Shown one piece after another: positions 1,101-13,402 of a stretch of DNA of 13,402 nt. A program made the translations under genes and the position numbers. The first letter of the stretch is position 1. The number at the start of each line of letters is the position of its first letter. This stretch comes from a virus. Under the pieces are notes generated by a model. The model was not told where the DNA came from. It made no database searches and saw nothing but the letters and a program-made list of their open reading frames with translations. The stretch spans positions 1 to 13,402 of IMG/VR virus record IMGVR_UViG_3300045988_056069; one strand, written 5' to 3'.

Positions 1101-1716
1101 CCCAAAAGACACCCCGGAACTGTACACACTGGACGCAATCCGACACGCTGACGTATGGACACCTGAAACAATCAAGCGAGAATACCAGAGACTAAGATCA
1201 ATCGCAGTGAAGCGCTTAAAGCGCATGGAAGAAAGCGAAATCGGCAGAGCAAGCAAGACATACTATTATAACAAGGACAAGTATAAACCTGCTTCTGAAC
1301 TGAAACCATACGAGCAGAAAATCCTATTGGCAGACCTTGCAAAGATGATGCAAGCCAAGACCGGCACACTCACAGGCATTAAGCGCTATCGCAAAGAAGC
1401 AATCAAGACTTTCCACGAACATGGCTACGAATACGTTAACGAACAAAATTTTAATGATATAGGCGAATTCTTCCGGTATTGGAAAGCGTCTAATCTGCGT
1501 GGCTATGGTAGTCTTGTAGCAATGGACGTATACGAGAAAATCAAAAACTCAGAAGCATTTGAACGAGCAACGCAGAAAGTCAATAAATCAGCCGAAATTT
1601 TCCGGGCGTTCCAAGCGTGGCAAGCGGAGCGAGATGCACCATTTGAACGCAAGTCGAATGTTGTTGAACGATCTTCCGGTGAGCTATTGCAGGCGTTAGA
1701 TGAATTTCTATGGTAA
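1054..1716 (+). CDS. Candidate terminal (genome-linked priming) protein, 220 aa
   Basis: Position is the main evidence. The gene lies immediately upstream of the protein-primed PolB and is translationally coupled to it (ATGGTAA overlap at 1710-1716), as in phi29 genes 3 and 2. The product is highly charged, K/R/E-rich and predicted helical. The segment EYQRLRSIAVKRLKR loosely recalls the N-terminal basic region of phi29 TP, from memory only. AAGGAG lies at 1038-1043 with a 10-nt spacer. The CDS itself is confident; the function is inferred. Confidence 0.5.
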   Translation: MKFYRTADPATGEVIDPKDTPELYTLDAIRHADVWTPETIKREYQRLRSIAVKRLKRMEESEIGRASKTYYYNKDKYKPASELKPYEQKILLADLAKMMQAKTGTLTGIKRYRKEAIKTFHEHGYEYVNEQNFNDIGEFFRYWKASNLRGYGSLVAMDVYEKIKNSEAFERATQKVNKSAEIFRAFQAWQAERDAPFERKSNVVERSSGELLQALDEFLW

Positions 1717-3734
1717 TCAAGCCGTCAGAATTTCCCCTTGCATGGCTTGAGCAAATACCGGAAGTAAAACGGAAGAAAGGCAACCAACGCACAAAGAAGC
1801 GCCGGAAATATAAAGACCTTATAACAGCGTTTGACATTGAGACAACCAGACTTGCAGATATTGAAAACTCTATCATGTACATCTGGCAGTGGCAATTTGG
1901 AAACGCCTACACGGTTGTTGGGAGAACATGGGATGAATTTACACAATTTCAAAAGAAGTTGCAGAACGTTCTTGATGACACTTTTCTGGTTGTTTTTGTT
2001 CACAATCTTTCCTATGAATTCCAGTTTCTAAGAGGTATCTACCTCTTTGAGCCGGAAGAAGTTTTCGCCGTCCGATCTCGTAAAGTTTTGAAATGTGATA
2101 TGCACAACTGTTTTGAATTCCGATGCAGTTACCTGCACAGCAACATGAACTTAGACACATATACTAAGAAAATGGGCGTACAGCATAAGAAGCTGACAGG
2201 AACATTTGACTATGACAAAGTACGCTATCCATGGACAGAACTGACCGAACAGGAATTAGCTTATTGCATACATGATGTGCAAGGCTTAACCGAAGCAATT
2301 CAAATTGAAATGGAGCATGACGGAGATAACCTGTATACATTTCCGCTAACTTCAACTGGCTATGTCCGCCGGGATGCCAAGAAAGCAATGTCGGAAGTGT
2401 CTTACAATTTCGTCAAAGGTCAGTTACCAGACTATGAGATATACAAAATGCTTAGGGAAGCGTTCCGGGGAGGTAACACCCATGCAAATAGATACTATGC
2501 AAATTACACCTTGCACAACGTTCACAGCGCAGACCGATCCAGCAGTTACCCGGATGTAATGTGCAACTGCAAATTCCCTGTCAGCGAATTTTACCGGCTG
2601 GGCGATGTACCATTTGACGAAGTTATCAAGATATTAGGAAAGCGTCAAAAAGCCTGCATTATGCGAGTAGCAATCACAGGCGCACACCTGCAAAGGGTTG
2701 ATTGGGGATGCCCCTATCTATCATTAGCAAAGTGCCGACACGTTGAAAACGCACTGCTTGATAATGGTAGAATTGTATCCGCTGACTATCTGGAAACCAC
2801 CATAACAGACATTGACTTGAAAATTTTACTAAGTGAGTACGCATGGACGGATATGAAAATTTACGATGTAGCAACCGCCCGTTATGGATACTTGCCTAAG
2901 CCGCTAATAAAAACGATCTGCCAATACTACCACTACAAGACAGAGTTAAAGAACGTTGACGGGCAAGAATTGCTATATATGAAATCAAAGAACAAGCTAA
3001 ACTCGCTTTATGGAATGTGTGCACAAGACCCTGTAAAGCAGTCGATCCTATTTATAGATAATGACTTTAAAGAACAGAACGAGGACGAAGCCGGTTTACT
3101 GTTAGCATATAACCGAAAGGCGTTCCTTGCATATCAGTGGGGCGTGTGGGTGACAGCATGGGCAAGATATAGACTTGAGGAGGGTATCAGGCTTGCCCAC
3201 GGTGATCCAGATGATCCCAATGCACCGCAATTTGTCTATTGCGATACCGATAGCGTTAAATATTTAGGTGAAATCAATCTGGACAAATTTAACCGGGAAC
3301 GCATTAAAGACAGCCGCAACAGCGGAGCATACGCCACTGATTCGGCAGGGATTACACACTACATGGGCGTATACGAGCAAGAGCATGATATGTGCGAATT
3401 TCGGACAATGGGCGCAAAAAAGTATGTTTACCGTGAAACACCGGATAGCAAACTGATCTGCACCATTGCCGGAGTTGAGAAAAAGAAAGGGGGTGAAGAA
3501 CTTGAAGCGCACGGAGGAATTACAGCCTTTCACGAGGGATTTACCTTTGTCAAAGCCGGAGGACTTGAAGCAATTTATAACGATCTGCCCACATACATCG
3601 CAACAGAGTATGAAGCAGGGGGACAGACCTGTCAAATTACGGCTAATGTCTGCCTACGGCCAAGCACTTATACATTAGGACTGACAGCCGATTATAAGCG
3701 GCTATTGACAGAAATCAGGTATGAATATGAATGA
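1710..3734 (+). CDS. Family B DNA polymerase, protein-primed type (phi29 gp2-like)
   Basis: The 674-aa product carries all the diagnostic motifs. ExoI is FDIETT (nt 1830-1847). The ExoII-like motif is HNLSYE (2001-2018). ExoIII is YCIHD. Also present are FRGGNTH, motif A DRSSSYP, motif B KNKLNSLYG (2988-3014), motif C YCDTDS (3237-3254) and a KKY-containing GAKKYVY. Its location in an ITR-bounded linear genome next to a TP candidate fits this call. Confidence 0.95.
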   Translation: MVIKPSEFPLAWLEQIPEVKRKKGNQRTKKRRKYKDLITAFDIETTRLADIENSIMYIWQWQFGNAYTVVGRTWDEFTQFQKKLQNVLDDTFLVVFVHNLSYEFQFLRGIYLFEPEEVFAVRSRKVLKCDMHNCFEFRCSYLHSNMNLDTYTKKMGVQHKKLTGTFDYDKVRYPWTELTEQELAYCIHDVQGLTEAIQIEMEHDGDNLYTFPLTSTGYVRRDAKKAMSEVSYNFVKGQLPDYEIYKMLREAFRGGNTHANRYYANYTLHNVHSADRSSSYPDVMCNCKFPVSEFYRLGDVPFDEVIKILGKRQKACIMRVAITGAHLQRVDWGCPYLSLAKCRHVENALLDNGRIVSADYLETTITDIDLKILLSEYAWTDMKIYDVATARYGYLPKPLIKTICQYYHYKTELKNVDGQELLYMKSKNKLNSLYGMCAQDPVKQSILFIDNDFKEQNEDEAGLLLAYNRKAFLAYQWGVWVTAWARYRLEEGIRLAHGDPDDPNAPQFVYCDTDSVKYLGEINLDKFNRERIKDSRNSGAYATDSAGITHYMGVYEQEHDMCEFRTMGAKKYVYRETPDSKLICTIAGVEKKKGGEELEAHGGITAFHEGFTFVKAGGLEAIYNDLPTYIATEYEAGGQTCQITANVCLRPSTYTLGLTADYKRLLTEIRYEYE

Positions 3735-3888
3735 CGGACACGATATGTGTGTGGAATGTTTAAAATCTGCTGACCGTTTTCATGAAGATGTTGATTGCAT
3801 GAATTGCGGTTGTAAAGGTTGCCCGTGGCTTCACAACTGTTCCGGGCAATGTTATACAAGTAACCAACGGGAACACCGTGGTAAATAA
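3721..3888 (+). CDS. Cys-rich micro-protein (up to 55 aa), possible zinc-binding protein
   Basis: Not in the ORF track. It fills the otherwise empty 174-nt gap after the polymerase. Hand translation: MNMNDGHDMCVECLKSADRFHEDVDCMNCGCKGCPWLHNCSGQCYTSNQREHRGK. It has 8 Cys arranged CxxC-x12-CxxCxCxxC-x5-CxxxC. The SD is weak; ATG 3727 (AGG at 3717-3719, 7-nt spacer) or ATG 3745 are alternative starts. Confidence 0.4.
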   Translation: MNMNDGHDMCVECLKSADRFHEDVDCMNCGCKGCPWLHNCSGQCYTSNQREHRGK

Positions 3889-3908
3889 AATTTAAAGGAG
3901 AGCAAACT

Positions 3909-4241
3909 ATGACTATCATTAAGACCAGCAAGGAACTGACCAAGCGTGAATCCTACAAGTTGACCCTTGACCCGGCTATTAAGAAGATGAAAGATTTCAT
4001 CGGCGTTCAGATTGACGTTACCGCCTACTGCATTTACAGTGACGTGAACAAGGACGGTAAGGAAGTTGAAGTGTTGTCGATCATGGACAAGGACGGCGGC
4101 GTGTGCGCCACCAACAGCGACACCTTTAAGCGTGATTTCATGAACATTGCCGAACTGATGGACGGCGAGGATTACACCATTGAGGTTATCAGCGGACAGA
4201 GCAAGGCAGGCCGGGAATTTATTACCTGCACTCTGGTGTAA
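3909..4241 (+). CDS. Hypothetical protein, 110 aa; possible replication accessory or ssDNA-binding protein (position-based guess)
   Basis: A strong SD, AAGGAG (3895-3900), lies 8 nt upstream of the ATG. The gene sits between the polymerase and the packaging ATPase. The product is small and predicted beta-rich (IGVQIDVTAYCIYSDV, EVEVLSIMDKDGGVCATN, YTIEVISGQSKAGREFITCTLV), compatible with an OB-like fold. No motif I can name with certainty. Confidence 0.35.
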   Translation: MTIIKTSKELTKRESYKLTLDPAIKKMKDFIGVQIDVTAYCIYSDVNKDGKEVEVLSIMDKDGGVCATNSDTFKRDFMNIAELMDGEDYTIEVISGQSKAGREFITCTLV

Positions 4242-4244
4242 CTC

Positions 4245-5282
4245 ATGAGCCGCATATATCTTGATAGCGGCTATTTAGATATTCACGGATTGCTTGAGCG
4301 GGGCTTGCCCTTTAACTTTGCGGTTGGAGGGCGAGCCACCGGCAAAACTTACGGCAGTCTGTTAGAATCTATCCAAGTTCCAAGAACTTTCTTGCTGATC
4401 CGGCGAACACAGGCACAGGCCGACATTATCACAAAACCGGAGTTTTCCCCATTCAAGCGAATATGCGAGGATCAAAACCTCTTAATAACGTCCTCGCCTG
4501 TTACGAAGTACAACAGCGCCTTTTATTTTTATAAGGTAGACGAGGATGGCAAACAGATACAGCAAGGAAAGCCTTTGGGGTATTCAGCCGCATTATCAAC
4601 ATTTTCCAATATCCGAGGGTTTGACGCTTCTGATGTTGACCTGATGATCTTTGATGAATTTATCCCGGAACGGCACGAGCGCCCAATTAAAAACGAGTTT
4701 GAAGCGCTTATGAACTGCTATGAAACCGTCAACAGAAATAGGGAGCTTCAAGGAAAAAAGCCGGTACAGTTGCTATGTCTCGCCAACGCTAACGATGTAG
4801 CTAACCCGGTGTTTGTCGGTTTCAATCTGGTAAAACGAGCAAATGAGATGTTAGCCAAGGGCAAAGAAGTCTATCAAGACAACAAGCGAGGTATATGTCT
4901 CTATATGCTTCAACACTCGCCCATTTCGGACGAAAAGCGGAACACCGTACTATACAAGGCTACGGAGGGCACACGCTTTTCTGAAATGGCACTGGAAAAC
5001 AAATTTGCATTTAACGATTTCGGAAACATTCGGAGCAGACCTATAAAAGAATTTATCCCTATTTGCGCAATCTCTAAAATCTGCGTGTATCGGCACAAGT
5101 CAGATGGAACCTATTACGTTTCCTTGCACAAGTCCGGCAGTCCCCCATACTACACCGACAGTGAAGCAGATATACAGCGCTTCAAACGCCTGTATGGCTG
5201 GCTATGGGATGCGTACATGAAAAATAAGGTAACTTTTGAAGAATATTTAGCGGAACACTACTTGACAAAGTATCTGAAATAA
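4245..5282 (+). CDS. DNA encapsidation (packaging) ATPase, phi29 gp16-like
   Basis: The 345-aa product has Walker A FAVGGRATGKTY and Walker B DLMIFDEF. It also carries FLLIRRT, ETVNRNRE, LLCLANANDVANPVFVGFNL and FSEMALENKF. These parallel remembered phi29 gp16 segments (VIGARGIGKSY, FIYVRRY, IVFDEFI, DTVFRNRE, CICLSNAVSVVNPYFLFFNL, YGEMSLDNQF). Confidence 0.92.
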   Translation: MSRIYLDSGYLDIHGLLERGLPFNFAVGGRATGKTYGSLLESIQVPRTFLLIRRTQAQADIITKPEFSPFKRICEDQNLLITSSPVTKYNSAFYFYKVDEDGKQIQQGKPLGYSAALSTFSNIRGFDASDVDLMIFDEFIPERHERPIKNEFEALMNCYETVNRNRELQGKKPVQLLCLANANDVANPVFVGFNLVKRANEMLAKGKEVYQDNKRGICLYMLQHSPISDEKRNTVLYKATEGTRFSEMALENKFAFNDFGNIRSRPIKEFIPICAISKICVYRHKSDGTYYVSLHKSGSPPYYTDSEADIQRFKRLYGWLWDAYMKNKVTFEEYLAEHYLTKYLK

Positions 5283-5296
5283 GCTACTCTTATATC

Positions 5297-5369
5297 AGAG
5301 TAAGGGTTGCATAAAGTCACGGCCGGAAGCTGATGCAAGCGGTTGACTACCGCAAGAAACCCTTACTCT
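5297..5369 (+). ncRNA. Candidate structured RNA element (three-way junction); function unknown (pRNA-like, processing site or terminator-like)
   Basis: A perfect 12-bp outer helix pairs AGAGTAAGGGTT (5297-5308) with AACCCTTACTCT (5358-5369). It encloses hairpin P2 (GCAT 5309-5312 with ATGC 5333-5336) and hairpin P3 (GCGG 5339-5342 with CCGC 5350-5353, 7-nt loop TTGACTA). The P3 loop TGACT (5344-5348) is complementary to AGTCA (5315-5319) in the P2 apical region. The element lies in the largest non-coding gap of the genome (5283-5399). Folded by eye only. Confidence 0.4.
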
Positions 5370-5399
5370 AAATTATTATCTGGCAGAAAGGAAATGTAA

Positions 5400-5624
5400 A
5401 TGGATGTCGCAACCGTAACACAGCTTGTTAGCAATTTGGGTTTCCCTATCGTCTGTGTAGGCGTTATGTTCTGGATGCAGAACAAGGAGAGGGAGAGCCA
5501 CGCCGCCGAAAGTGAGCGTTGGACGGAAGTCGTGAAAGAGAACACCGAAGCACTGCGAGATTTGAAAGAGGTTGTATCACTGCTAAAGGAGCGTGTCGGC
5601 CATGTCAGCGAAGAAAGAGAATGA
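5400..5624 (+). CDS. Holin, BhlA/UviB-like
   Basis: The 74-aa product has a single N-terminal TM helix (LVSNLGFPIVCVGVMFWM). This is followed by NKERES and a charged, coiled-coil-like tail, matching the BhlA holin-like layout. SD AAAGGA lies at 5387-5392. The gene sits immediately upstream of, and overlaps, the putative lysin gene. Confidence 0.7.
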   Translation: MDVATVTQLVSNLGFPIVCVGVMFWMQNKERESHAAESERWTEVVKENTEALRDLKEVVSLLKERVGHVSEERE

Positions 5625-6916: not shown

Positions 6917-8131
6917 ATGGCAAATGTTAATGACATGACCATTTTCCAGGCAGGCACTATTCTACAATCCCTTGTCCAGCAGGCGACCGGCCAGGCGGTT
7001 ATTACCGCTTCCACTCCCGGCGAGTTTGTCAGCGTGGCACAGGTTGCGCTGAAAACTGGCTATGACCCCATCTTGAATGCAATGTCCCAGATGTGGGGCC
7101 GTACTATTTTCAGTATCCGCCCCTATGAGCGCAAGTTCTCCGGCTTGGAAATGAACATGAGCCGCTGGGGTAACGCCGTTCGGAAGTTGTCTATTGCAGA
7201 TAAGCCCATTGAGGACGATGCCCGCTTCATCTGGCCTGTTGGCTACGACGCTACCAAGACCGGTAACCCGCTGGGCAACGGTCAGAGCGTGGATATGTAC
7301 GCCTTGAACAAGCCCGACATTCTTCAGGTCAATTTCTATGGTCAGGCCGTTTATGAAAACAGCTATACCATTTTCGAGGATCAGCTGGACACCGCTTTCA
7401 CCGGCCCGGACGAATTTATGAGGTTTAATGCGATGGTTTCCGGCAACCGCTCCGACAAGCTTGAGCAGTACCGCGAGAATATCGCGCGCGGCATTCTGGC
7501 AAACTACATTGGTTCTATCCTTGCCGAAAAGCAGGCTACGCGCGTTGTACATCTGCTGACAGAGTACAATGCCGAAACCGGTTTGACGCTGACCGCACAG
7601 GCTATCTATCAGCCGGACAACTTCCCCAGCTTTATGCAGTGGGTATACGCGAGAGTTGCAACCATCTCCCGAATGATGACCGAGCGATCCGAGATGTTCC
7701 AGACGGTTATCAACGAGAAGCACGTTATGCGCCACACTCCCGCCGCCCGTCAGAAAGTCTATCTATATGCCAAAGCTATGGATCAGTTTGATGCTATGGT
7801 CAAAGCAAACAGTTTCCACGACAACTATCTCAAGTATACGGACTACGAGGGCGTTAACTTCTGGCAGTCCATCGAAACGCCTGACAGTATCAGTTTGAAG
7901 CCCGTGTACACGTCCACCACCGGCACCGCCACCACCGGCGAGGCCGTGGAACAGGCAGGAATCTTCGGCGTTATCTTTGACGAGGAAGCGCTGGGTTATG
8001 CCCAGATTCGCGCAACCAGCGATATCACCCCGAAGAACGCCAAGGGCCGCTATTGGAACACGTTTGACCATGTTAACTTCCGGGCTATCATGGACATGAG
8101 TGAAAAGGGCGTTCTGCTGTTGCTGGATTAA
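6917..8131 (+). CDS. Major capsid protein, phi29 gp8-like (HK97 fold expected)
   Basis: The 404-aa gene has a strong SD (AAAGGAG) and follows the scaffold-like gene. The C-terminal NAKGRYWNTFDHV resembles remembered phi29 gp8 NPRGLYWNYYYHV. Its size and the synteny scaffold-MCP-tail knob fit this call. A terminator-like hairpin follows, which is typical of highly expressed capsid genes. Confidence 0.8.
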   Translation: MANVNDMTIFQAGTILQSLVQQATGQAVITASTPGEFVSVAQVALKTGYDPILNAMSQMWGRTIFSIRPYERKFSGLEMNMSRWGNAVRKLSIADKPIEDDARFIWPVGYDATKTGNPLGNGQSVDMYALNKPDILQVNFYGQAVYENSYTIFEDQLDTAFTGPDEFMRFNAMVSGNRSDKLEQYRENIARGILANYIGSILAEKQATRVVHLLTEYNAETGLTLTAQAIYQPDNFPSFMQWVYARVATISRMMTERSEMFQTVINEKHVMRHTPAARQKVYLYAKAMDQFDAMVKANSFHDNYLKYTDYEGVNFWQSIETPDSISLKPVYTSTTGTATTGEAVEQAGIFGVIFDEEALGYAQIRATSDITPKNAKGRYWNTFDHVNFRAIMDMSEKGVLLLLD

Positions 8132-9577: not shown

Positions 9578-10117
9578 ATGGCATGGATTACAGGAAACCG
9601 CTATCTGTCGATGGACGAAATGAAGAACAACGCCGACATTATGCATTATTTCTTCAAGTCTAACAGATGGACGGATAACGCTATCTCCGCCATGTTTGGC
9701 AATATGCAGACAGAAAGCACACTGAATCCGGGAATATGGGAAAACCTTGACCCGTTTGTGGGCGGCTATGGGTTGGTACAGTGGACACCGTACACCAATT
9801 ATTCCGAATGGGCCGGTACTAACTGGCAAGACAACGGGCAGAAAGAGATGGAGCGGATCATATACGAGTTGGAGAACCGCTTGCAGTGGATCAGTACCAG
9901 CCTTTACCCTATGACGTTCCGGGAGTTCTCGCAATCTGATAAGCCGCCTGCCTATCTTGCGCAAGCGTTCCTATATAACTATGAGCGCCCAACAGTGAAG
10001 CCGCAACCGGCACGGAGCAAGCAAGCGGAATACTGGTATCAGTACATCACAGGGCATGAGCCGCCGATCTCACAGCTACCGATCTGGCTACTATTTAAAA
10101 TGAAAGAAAGGAGATGA
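9578..10117 (+). CDS. Tail-associated lysozyme (Phage_lysozyme2-type peptidoglycan hydrolase)
   Basis: The motifs FGNMQTESTLNPG (candidate catalytic Glu) and GGYGLVQWTP are typical of the phage tail lysozyme family. ATG 9578 (AGGTGA 9566-9571, 6-nt spacer) is preferred over the track GTG at 9572. This gives 179 aa. Confidence 0.8.
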   Translation: MAWITGNRYLSMDEMKNNADIMHYFFKSNRWTDNAISAMFGNMQTESTLNPGIWENLDPFVGGYGLVQWTPYTNYSEWAGTNWQDNGQKEMERIIYELENRLQWISTSLYPMTFREFSQSDKPPAYLAQAFLYNYERPTVKPQPARSKQAEYWYQYITGHEPPISQLPIWLLFKMKERR

Positions 10118-10122
10118 TCCCA

Positions 10123-11064
10123 ATGATTGGTAACGGTATCCCGGCAAACTATGATTATATCAACGCGCAAAACGCCGCTGTAAGTCCGTCCACCGTCCAT
10201 TGCAGAAACACAGCACTTTCCCAATACTTCCGGCGCTACCTGCTTCAAAAGGCTATGTCGCTTTTCAAGTGGAAGTTGCCGGAGCATTGGAGCAAGAATT
10301 ATTTCCTGTATGTGCTGTACTGCTGGGGCTATCTCGCAGTTGTCAACACAAACAGTTTTGGTGTTATTCCGCAGGGGTGCACCCTGACCGGCTATAACGT
10401 GTTCTACCAGCCGACTAACGCAATTATCACAAATCCCCTCTTGCGTGGTATCCTTGAGCCAAGAATCGGAAGCCAATGCACGATTATCCGTTTACAGCCG
10501 GACTATGGCGGTATTATGGATATTGTGGGGTACTATGGCGATATGTTAGCGCTGTGCGCTGAATCTGTCGGAATGAACCTTATGAACACACACCTTGCGT
10601 ATGTGTTTGCGGCTGGTAACAAGACCGCCGCAGAGAGCTTCAAAAAGATGTATGACCGTGTAGCGTCCGGCGAAGTCTGCACAGTGATTGACAAGAACCT
10701 GTTCCGGGATGACGGAAGTAAAGCGTGGGAAGCGTTTGAACAGAACTTGAAGCAGGTTTATATCAGTTCCGACATTCTCAGCGATATGCGCAAAATTGAA
10801 GCAATGTTTGACACGGATATTGGCATTCCCAACGCTAACACGGACAAGCGTGAACGGCTGGTAACTGACGAAGTGAACGCTAATAACGTTGAGACACAGA
10901 GCAAATGCGCTATGTGGCTGGAAGAATTGCAGGAGAGTATCAAGGCAACAAACGATATGTTTGGCTTAGATCTTTCTGTTGAGTGGCGATTCCCTGACGC
11001 TTATGAAGGGGGTGTGAACAATGTCGGCAACAGTAAGCCTGTTGGGCCTGAAACGGTTGAATGA
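10123..11064 (+). CDS. Head-tail connector (portal / upper collar), phi29 gp10-like
   Basis: The segment IGIPNANTDKRERLVTDEVNANNVETQS...FGLDLSVEWRF closely parallels remembered phi29 gp10 [29 protein letters not shown]...YGLNVKVKFRY. The size (313 aa) is close to gp10 (309 aa). ATG 10123 (AAGGAG 10108-10113, 9-nt spacer) is preferred over the track ATG 10114, which has zero spacer. Confidence 0.9.
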   Translation: MIGNGIPANYDYINAQNAAVSPSTVHCRNTALSQYFRRYLLQKAMSLFKWKLPEHWSKNYFLYVLYCWGYLAVVNTNSFGVIPQGCTLTGYNVFYQPTNAIITNPLLRGILEPRIGSQCTIIRLQPDYGGIMDIVGYYGDMLALCAESVGMNLMNTHLAYVFAAGNKTAAESFKKMYDRVASGEVCTVIDKNLFRDDGSKAWEAFEQNLKQVYISSDILSDMRKIEAMFDTDIGIPNANTDKRERLVTDEVNANNVETQSKCAMWLEELQESIKATNDMFGLDLSVEWRFPDAYEGGVNNVGNSKPVGPETVE

Positions 11065-13245: not shown

Positions 13246-13280
13246 GGCCCGTGTTGAAATATACACGGGCCTATTTATAT
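13246..13280 (+). terminator. Intrinsic terminator at the end of the operon
   Basis: A perfect 9-bp stem pairs GGCCCGTGT (13246-13254) with ACACGGGCC (13263-13271), with an 8-nt loop. It is followed by T-rich TATTTATAT. It starts 8 nt after the last stop codon. Confidence 0.8.
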
Positions 13281-13285
13281 ACTGT

Positions 13286-13402
13286 CACTTTAATGTACTA
13301 AAGTGCTCCCTGTCCACGCCACACGTACAACTTGTATCCACCGTGCGCACACAAATGTGTCCGTGGGGGAAAGACAAATGTCCGCCAGTGGTGGTTAATC
13401 TA
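13286..13402. repeat. Right inverted terminal repeat (13350-13402 perfect; degenerate similarity from about 13286)
   Basis: This is the reverse complement of 1-53 (perfect) and of 54-117 (imperfect). It includes a perfect 7-bp inverted repeat, CACTTTA-N6-TAAAGTG, at 13286-13305. Confidence 0.95.

Follow-up and report, generated by a model that had tools for sequence, protein, structure and literature searches.

A compact three-way-junction RNA at the head of the late operon of phi29-like gut phages, a possible miniature packaging RNA

Background

Whether gp16-type packaging motors other than that of phi29 need an RNA is a long-standing question. It is raised again by a short non-coding gap in the IMG/VR virus record IMGVR_UViG_3300045988_056069, whose 13,402 nucleotides were analysed as a whole and are called the window below. 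According to reviews from 2016 and 2024 (PMC11476376, PMC5066667), packaging RNA (pRNA) is known only from phi29 and related Bacillus phages; a pRNA-like RNA in an archaeal ampullavirus is mentioned in one paper. In the window, the gene of a gp16-type packaging ATPase (4245-5282, + strand; PF05894, 3.8e-20) is followed by a 117-nt gap, in which a preliminary description of this DNA, made without database searches, saw a three-way-junction RNA as a candidate pRNA-like element. What does this gap encode, and could its product serve in packaging? As judged by comparison with relatives, the element at 5297-5369 of the + strand encodes an RNA of about 73 nt with a compact structure, placed at the start of the late transcript. 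A role in packaging is our tentative reading of it.

RNA structure and covariation

The 73-nt element takes the form of a three-way junction with a loop-to-bulge pairing, all on the + strand. Its two ends form the closing helix P1 (AGAGTAAGGGTT, 5297-5308, with AACCCTTACTCT, 5358-5369), a perfect 12-bp inverted repeat; nowhere else in the window does a perfect local inverted repeat reach 11 nt. The 4-bp helix P2a (GCAT, 5309-5312, with ATGC, 5333-5336) stacks directly on P1. On its 5' side follows a 7-nt bulge, AAAGTCA (5313-5319), and then hairpin P2b (5320-5332), in which CGGC (5320-5323) and GCTG (5329-5332) enclose the pentaloop CGGAA (5324-5328); the 3' strand of P2a is continuous with P2b, so that side carries no bulge. 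After a 2-nt linker comes hairpin P3 (5339-5353), with GCGG (5339-5342) and CCGC (5350-5353) around the loop TTGACTA, and the junction strand J3/1 (AAGA, 5354-5357) leads back to P1. Five bases of the P3 loop, TGACT (5344-5348), are complementary to AGTCA in the bulge (5315-5319). The closing helix, the GCAT/ATGC and GCGG/CCGC stems and this 5-bp complementarity had been recognised in the preliminary description and proved correct in every coordinate. It had also drawn the stem of P2 as it is given here, but left the apical region without a definite structure; this region in fact consists of the 5'-side bulge, P2b and the CGGAA loop.

The 73-mer folds better than its shuffled versions (z = -4.9; 0 of 200 shuffles equalled it). 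The folding with RNAfold that had been suggested as a check bears out a structured RNA, but not the proposed topology: the minimum free energy structure is a nested hairpin without a three-way junction, in which AGUCA:UGACU is used as an ordinary helix. Since the two disagree, single-sequence folding does not separate the models. The nested hairpin was rejected by comparison, its inner helix being unpaired in 15-19 of 28 relatives.

Because a megablast search of the genome against GenBank phages gave no match, relatives were located through gp16. A gp16-based search of IMG/VR provided a close set of 31 loci with 75-99% gp16 identity, and a profile search provided a wide set of 423 gp16 relatives, 80 of which were fetched; by tblastn, more than 400 gp16 relatives are confirmed. 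From the sequences of these relatives two covariance models, R1 and R2, were built, whose E-values are rough owing to a short calibration. Altogether 83 loci carry the element, and 82 distinct sequences were aligned. As the alignment was made by fitting to the model, its figures lean towards the structure; an independent MAFFT alignment of 28 distinct close relatives agrees with it.

In the MAFFT alignment, the three-way junction together with the bulge:loop pairing is paired in 96.4% of cells, and compensatory changes are seen in every helix. Among the 82 sequences, 89.9% of cells are paired, compared with 37-42% in slid controls. Two-sided changes occur in 30 of the 31 modelled pairs, and the observed score was reached by 0 of 500 shuffles. 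In the same 82 sequences, P1 (11-13 bp long in the core family) has two-sided changes at all 13 modelled pairs; P2a is paired in 99.7% of cells, with compensatory changes at all 4 pairs; the P2b stem is paired throughout (100%), with all 4 pairs covarying; and P3, whose stem is 4-5 bp and loop 5-7 nt in the family, is paired in 92% of cells, with covariation at all 5 stem pairs. The P2b loop is almost invariant (C in 81, G in 76, then G, A and A each in 82 of 82). The junction strands are among the most variable columns: J2/3 is AA, GU, AC or AU, and J3/1, 4-5 nt long, reads roughly A-N-G/U-A by column composition.

The bulge and the P3 loop shift in step. In close relatives AGUCA:UGACU is replaced by GGUCA:UGACC and GACCA:UGGUC, and 3 of the 5 pairs covary. 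Family-wide, 27 distinct complementary sequence pairs were found, the P3 loop forming 4-6 Watson-Crick pairs, and Watson-Crick runs average 4.26 bp with the loop's own partner versus 2.26 bp with a mismatched one. Since G.U pairs occur and every match lies on the coding strand, the selected molecule is the + strand RNA. On this comparative evidence we regard the three-way junction with P1, P2a, bulge, P2b, P3 and the bulge:loop pairing as established as a real RNA structure; covariation in homologues, which the preliminary description had named as a test of the fold, supports it strongly.

In distant relatives, with a gp16 identity of 31-40% (Amedibacillus phage AD70P2 is one of them), the same architecture appears to recur in unrelated sequences, with the bulge:loop pairings AAAAGGAA:UUCCUUUU, UGUGC:GCACA and AUCC:GGAU and a P1 of about 6-9 bp; the structures in these distant clades (L035, L036, L039-L041, L102 and L105) were judged by eye alone. 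AD70P2 and AD70P3 differ by a single base, so the comparison of these two is uninformative. In the L125/L128/L130/L134/L144/L148 clade of the alignment, seven sequences pair bulge and loop as AACC(A):(U)GGUU. The CE and D loops of phi29 have the same four bases, a match that is probably a coincidence.

Promoter and late operon

Directly upstream of the element, a -35 box TTGACA (5262-5267, +) lies within the final gp16 codons, and a -10 box TACTCT (5285-5290, +) follows after a 17-nt spacer and ends 6 nt ahead of P1. TTGACA is identical in 32 of 32 close relatives although adjacent synonymous positions vary, and it is found in 55 of 81 distinct upstream regions family-wide. At least 9 of the 12 promoter consensus positions are matched in 74 of these 81 regions, often with an extended -10 (an upstream TG). 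In the relatives the -10 box is TATAAT, TATTAT, TACAAT or TATTTT, and it lies 4-10 nt, most often 6, ahead of the first base of P1 (81 promoters). The built-in promoter scan did not call a promoter at 5262-5290 since TACTCT agrees with the consensus at just 3 of 6 positions. The promoter is of the sigma-A type, and its geometry predicts a transcript 5' end at or a few nucleotides from 5297. Therefore the RNA would form the very start of the late transcript. In one clade (L094/L097/L098) the promoter seems, by eye, to lie about 20-25 nt further upstream.

Two statements of the preliminary description fall with this promoter. It had seen no dedicated promoter for the RNA, and it had suggested a switch in which TACTCT pairs with AGAGTA at the start of P1. 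TACTCT is the -10 box itself, and the complementarity is missing where this box is TATTTT, TACAAT or TATAAT; the switch was accordingly rejected.

Behind the element no terminator was called by the terminator scan. The tails past P1 are A/U-mixed and a U-run after P1 is not conserved, and an intrinsic terminator was rejected on these grounds. In every relative inspected, an A/U-rich spacer of 13-40 nt leads to a Shine-Dalgarno (SD) sequence and a start codon; in the window these are the AAGGA and ATG of the holin gene (5388-5402, +). As there is no terminator, and an SD and an open reading frame (ORF) always come next, the 3' end of a discrete RNA would need processing. The first late gene is usually a holin (of several types), sometimes an amidase or another gene, depending on the clade. 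The late operon comprises lysis and structural genes, and the RNA heads it in every relative inspected. Gp16 and the late operon are apart in two relatives: MT835998 (L034) has the operon inverted and at a great distance from gp16, and L071 has an insertion of about 840 nt behind gp16. The unit of promoter, RNA and late gene is intact in both. What is conserved is thus the link of the RNA with the start of the late operon rather than with gp16.

In part of the family the spacer contains a further segment, here called anti-E, which lies 4-14 nt past P1 and is complementary to the 5' strand of P2b and the first four loop bases. About one third of the family has a 6-8 nt Watson-Crick match with both sides changing together (L034, L027, L063, L110, L038 and L128 are among the carriers); it is missing in other clades. 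Seven different pairings were found, including AGCCGGA:UCCGGCU, GGCCGGA:UCCGGCC, UCCCGGA:UCCGGGA, CGGACGGA:UCCGUCCG and CUCGGAA:UUCCGAG. In the window the segment TCTGGC (UCUGGC in RNA; 5379-5384, +) is degenerate, being complementary to GCCGGA (5322-5327) with one G.U pair. Anti-E pairing and P2b are mutually exclusive; the SD is not covered and no terminator is formed.

In L069, L077, L081 and L087, a 14-bp perfect palindrome, GTTTCACGTGAAAC, separates the -35 box of the RNA promoter from its -10 box and fills the whole spacer. It looks like a possible operator, at which a dimeric repressor would act on the late promoter. A related sequence, TCACGTGAAAC, sits after the RNA in the L125/L128 clade.

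Distribution and database searches

The element is present in all 83 aligned loci, which belong to phi29-like gut phages of 12-14 kb, and in every complete relative examined. R1 had no matches in the distant relatives, and R2, made from the first matches, recovered most. All full-length covariance-model matches are within phi29-like contigs of 12-14 kb; pattern matches in viral contigs of 38 kb and 66 kb yielded no full-length model match. A fixed DNA pattern had at least 120 matches in cellular contigs. None of the 80 cellular loci listed was full-length by the model, and therefore no host was assigned.

A search of Rfam (Rfam 15) with the whole window and with a 171-nt slice at E<=10 returned sub-threshold chance matches only, RF00044 (pRNA) not among them, and the tRNA/tmRNA scan returned nothing. 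A hammerhead or other ribozyme was rejected, since the junction strands do not fit and Rfam gave no matches. No description of the element was found in the searchable literature or in Rfam 15. From these searches the element represents a new RNA family; within what was scanned, it is confined to 12-14 kb phi29-like gut-phage contigs.

Two groups of phages carry a variant or a candidate relative of the RNA. In L035, L119, L120 and L122, a larger leader-RNA variant of about 150 nt, which R1 and R2 do not detect, lies directly after gp16. It has several complementarities of the UGCACA/UGUGCA type and an extra covarying hairpin ahead of the SD. A stand-alone RNA unit in the L035/L119 clade was considered and rejected, the hairpin after the larger variant running directly into the SD. 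In the Clostridium innocuum phages CI55P1, CI461P1 and CI130P2, a candidate related RNA is found in the 150-nt gap between the polymerase and gp16 genes (L181 4780-4860, which is CI55P1; L305 and L306). A three-way junction can be drawn there with a bulge AUACCA and a loop UGGUA. Its apical loop is unlike that of the family, and the three genomes, 97% identical in this gap, are too alike for covariation.

Comparison with phi29 pRNA

The phage of the window and phi29 share a gp16 ATPase, a gp10 connector and protein-primed replication. When the element is compared with the Rfam consensus drawn on phi29, its parts come in the same order: P1 corresponds to the A helix, P2a to the C helix, the 5'-side bulge to the CE bulge, P2b to the E hairpin, which likewise has no bulge on the 3' side, and P3 to the D hairpin. 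In both RNAs the Watson-Crick complementarity of bulge and loop is kept by covariation and the sequence itself is free. The transcript predicted here starts at the base of the closing helix; in phi29, the A helix begins at about nt 3 of the A1 transcript. The order of the parts, the freely varying yet complementary bulge and loop, the predicted start, the type of phage and the confinement of full-length model matches to phi29-like contigs speak for a packaging RNA. Moreover, the genome offers no rival candidate for a pRNA, wide conservation among relatives being limited to this one non-coding stretch.

The remaining comparisons are mostly differences. The element has 73 nt, versus 120-174 nt for the phi29-type RNA; its counterpart of the C helix has 4 bp versus 9 bp and that of the D helix 4-5 bp versus 6 bp, and the junction strands are 0/2/4 nt in the element versus 1/3/0 nt in phi29. 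The element is fused to the late mRNA, while phi29 pRNA is a separate early transcript from near the genome end. The near-invariant CGGAA of the apical loop is another difference. Neither R1 nor R2 matches phi29, and there is no sequence similarity either.

We tentatively read the element as a miniature packaging RNA, including the case in which it also serves as a 5' structure of the mRNA; this is a possibility that we favour with considerable doubt. The bolder claim, that it is a true packaging RNA, ring-forming, the smallest known, the first in bacterial viruses outside the Bacillus Salasmaviridae and present across hundreds of human-gut phi29-like phages, is doubtful on present evidence. 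As a packaging RNA in either sense, it would be released by cleavage in the A/U-rich spacer behind P1, or by occasional termination there. The released copies would join "hand in hand" via bulge:loop pairing and use P2b, the conserved hairpin, to dock on the portal vertex. P1 would then be presented to the gp16-type ATPase, so that the motor is linked to the prohead, and RNA still attached to the mRNA would also act as a 5'-terminal structure. In phi29, the C-terminal domain of gp16 has little contact with the connector, and it is mainly pRNA that provides the connection to the procapsid (10.1101/2020.07.06.188573). The ATPase profile aligns with full-length phi29 gp16 (7JQQ chain A, residues 6-319 of 332), with the C-terminal domain included.

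A number of observations weigh against a packaging function. RF00044 did not match the 171-nt slice at E<=10, while the phi29 positive control scored 145 bits. P1 is a 12-bp helix without a bulge, versus about 25 bp with a CCA bulge in the phi29 A helix, where the bulge is essential (PMC3479190). The phi29 connector needs an N-terminal RKR segment to bind pRNA (PMC12084888). The connector of the window has 1 lysine or arginine among its 37 N-terminal residues, phi29 gp10 having 8 in 25, and the basic RKR segment is missing from the connectors of 15 of 15 RNA-carrying relatives checked. In the relatives the RNA is never a stand-alone unit, given the lack of a terminator and the SD and start within about 13-40 nt; it has stayed with the late operon where gp16 is separated (L034, L071); and the anti-E pairing in about one third of the family is a feature acting in cis. 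CGGAA is invariant while the phage proteins diverge to 30-50% identity, which fits a host partner better. The equal length of P2a and P3 would suit side-by-side docking within one molecule, as in the THF-I (tetrahydrofolate) riboswitch. By a rough estimate, each subunit would contribute 13-14 bp (P2a, P3 and the kissing helix added up) versus about 19 bp in phi29, and a ring of 5 or 6 such subunits would be too narrow for a connector end of phi29 size (6.6 nm). Covariation is the same for bulge:loop pairing in cis and in trans; the equal arms and the THF-I precedent make pairing in cis plausible. The pRNA-like idea of the preliminary description is thus left in a mixed state: the layout, the bulge:loop covariation and the gp16-type ATPase speak for it, but the missing RF00044 match, the short P1 and the absent RKR segment do not.

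Alternative functions

The fact that the RNA comes first in the late transcript, right after a consensus promoter and 13-40 nt ahead of the SD, raises a serious explanation absent from the alternatives of the preliminary description, namely a leader acting in cis. Here the bulge:loop pairing would be an intramolecular pseudoknot that keeps P2 and P3 alongside each other, and the RNA would present the CGGAA hairpin to a protein, RNA polymerase or the ribosome, and thereby control the late operon, either by processive antitermination, as with lambda boxB/N or HK022 put, or through translation of the first late gene; in some clades anti-E might compete for the P2b hairpin as a switch. We consider this rather unlikely, although much of the above agrees with it: the attachment of the RNA to the late operon away from gp16 (L034 and L071), the covariation of anti-E in several clades, the equal lengths of P2a and P3, with the THF-I loop-receptor pseudoknot as an intramolecular precedent, and a pentaloop that stays invariant while its 4-bp stem covaries freely, the classic signature of a protein-binding hairpin. 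As the late promoter is near consensus, control of the holin and lysin genes after initiation is also plausible. Lambda boxB (part of nut, the site of N action) and HK022 put are promoter-proximal antitermination RNAs built as simple hairpins. The element resembles them as a structured RNA right after the promoter of a long phage operon and in its small hairpin with an invariant pentaloop and a covarying stem, but it is a pseudoknotted three-way junction, and neither an N-like protein nor another candidate binding protein was identified. Inside the late operon no strong intrinsic terminators are predicted, weak terminator-like sites only; the sole strong one is at 13246-13271. Since the first downstream gene varies by clade, gene-specific control is unlikely; about two thirds of the family lack anti-E, which leaves the SD uncovered, and Rfam gave no match to put, EAR or other leader families. 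The same early position would suit a 5'-terminal stabiliser, whose pseudoknotted fold shields the late mRNA of about 8 kb from decay by RNase J1 or RppH in Firmicutes. We regard such a function as unlikely; its logic would be that of the 5' stem-loops known to stabilise mRNAs and of the exonuclease-resistant RNAs (xrRNAs) of viruses. With P1 starting 4-10 nt past the -10 box, few or no unpaired 5' nucleotides are expected, and the element heads a long operon in every complete relative examined. The three-way junction with its pseudoknot, and the loop-to-downstream pairing of some clades, recall the xrRNA design; to our knowledge, no element of this type is known from bacteria or phages. However, a simple hairpin suffices in the known bacterial 5' stabilisers, the invariant CGGAA loop and the conserved architecture would be left unexplained, and the apparently more distant promoter of the L094/L097/L098 clade would add a 5' tail.

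Two further explanations seem very improbable to us. A metabolite riboswitch aptamer of the three-way-junction type (purine, THF-I), acting on the lysis genes, is suggested by likenesses of form. In THF-I, near-parallel arms of a three-way junction are tied by loop-receptor Watson-Crick pairing (PMC6614920), and these riboswitches, like the element, are RNAs of the 5' untranslated region of about 70-90 nt (73 nt here) in which a three-way junction with equal arms has a remote loop-receptor contact. Yet the junction strands, where a ligand pocket should be conserved, are the least conserved part of the element (J2/3 and J3/1) and carry no pocket signature; conservation is instead concentrated in an exposed hairpin loop, the anti-E pairing that competes with P2b in about one third of the family neither covers the SD nor forms a terminator, as an expression platform would, and Rfam contains no match. 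No better are the chances of the functions that the preliminary description kept in reserve (a weak terminator, an RNase III site, a punctuation mark in the mRNA) or of a DNA-level repeat, operator or origin. That two modules meet at a perfect 12-bp inverted repeat with an A/U-rich stretch behind it would be in keeping with them, and the palindrome GTTTCACGTGAAAC could be an operator at the DNA level, but one that lies upstream of the element and outside it. The terminator scan was silent and the U-run after P1 is not conserved, P1 is shorter than typical RNase III substrates, and with the promoter immediately upstream the element begins a transcript and does not end one. These roles would also have no need of the internal three-way junction and pseudoknot. 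As for DNA-level functions, the G.U pairs and the compensatory, non-palindromic changes show selection on the + strand RNA.

The packaging-RNA reading, which we still prefer, can now be tested directly in a large phi29-like clade separate from that of phi29. Cultured relatives exist: the Amedibacillus phages AD70P2 and AD70P3 have a divergent version of the RNA at the same position. If the element is a true packaging RNA, an RNA adaptor would be implied as ancestral to gp16-type motors, and a minimal natural pRNA would be available for studies of motor mechanism, evolution and RNA nanotechnology. If it is instead a leader acting in cis, it would found a new class of RNA, marked by an invariant CGGAA hairpin, for the control or stabilisation of phage late operons. 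On either reading, it is an unannotated RNA family fit for Rfam.

Genome and other structured segments

The window has a terminal inverted repeat (1-53 and 13350-13402), perfect over 53 bp and extending imperfectly to about 110 bp, and is therefore the complete linear genome, 13,402 bp long, of a phage with protein-primed replication. All genes are on the + strand. Their products include PolB, the protein-primed family-B DNA polymerase (1710-3734), a protein similar to the single-stranded-DNA-binding protein of phi29 (3909-4241; a weak Pfam match, E = 4.4e-4, under the curated cut-off), a holin with a PHROG holin match that opens the late operon (5400-5624), a lysin, a phi29-type major capsid protein (6917-8131) and a gp10-type connector (10114-11064; PF05352, 1.1e-18). 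The gp16-like and gp10-like proteins recognised in the preliminary description are thereby borne out by profile matches, and the PolB gene comes in addition. Its remark that the 117-nt gap is the largest non-coding one was mistaken, as the intervals 750-1053 and 3735-3908 between large ORFs are longer (small ORFs lie inside them). The nearest database relatives are unannotated contigs from human faeces and Amedibacillus phages of the Guelinviridae.

Three other segments of the genome are strongly structured. Just past the last gene, near the right end, a strong G+C-rich hairpin at 13246-13271 has U/A-rich tails on both strands and resembles a bidirectional terminator. Upstream of the ORF 1054-1716, a long hairpin at 945-1000 (+; z about -7) is kept in the closest relatives only. 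Inside the coding sequence of gp16, in the Walker-A region, lies a long hairpin at 4300-4339 (z about -5 to -8), for which 10 relatives give an 18-bp consensus with 3 compensatory pairs in its outer part. This hairpin may be a functional RNA structure within the ATPase gene.

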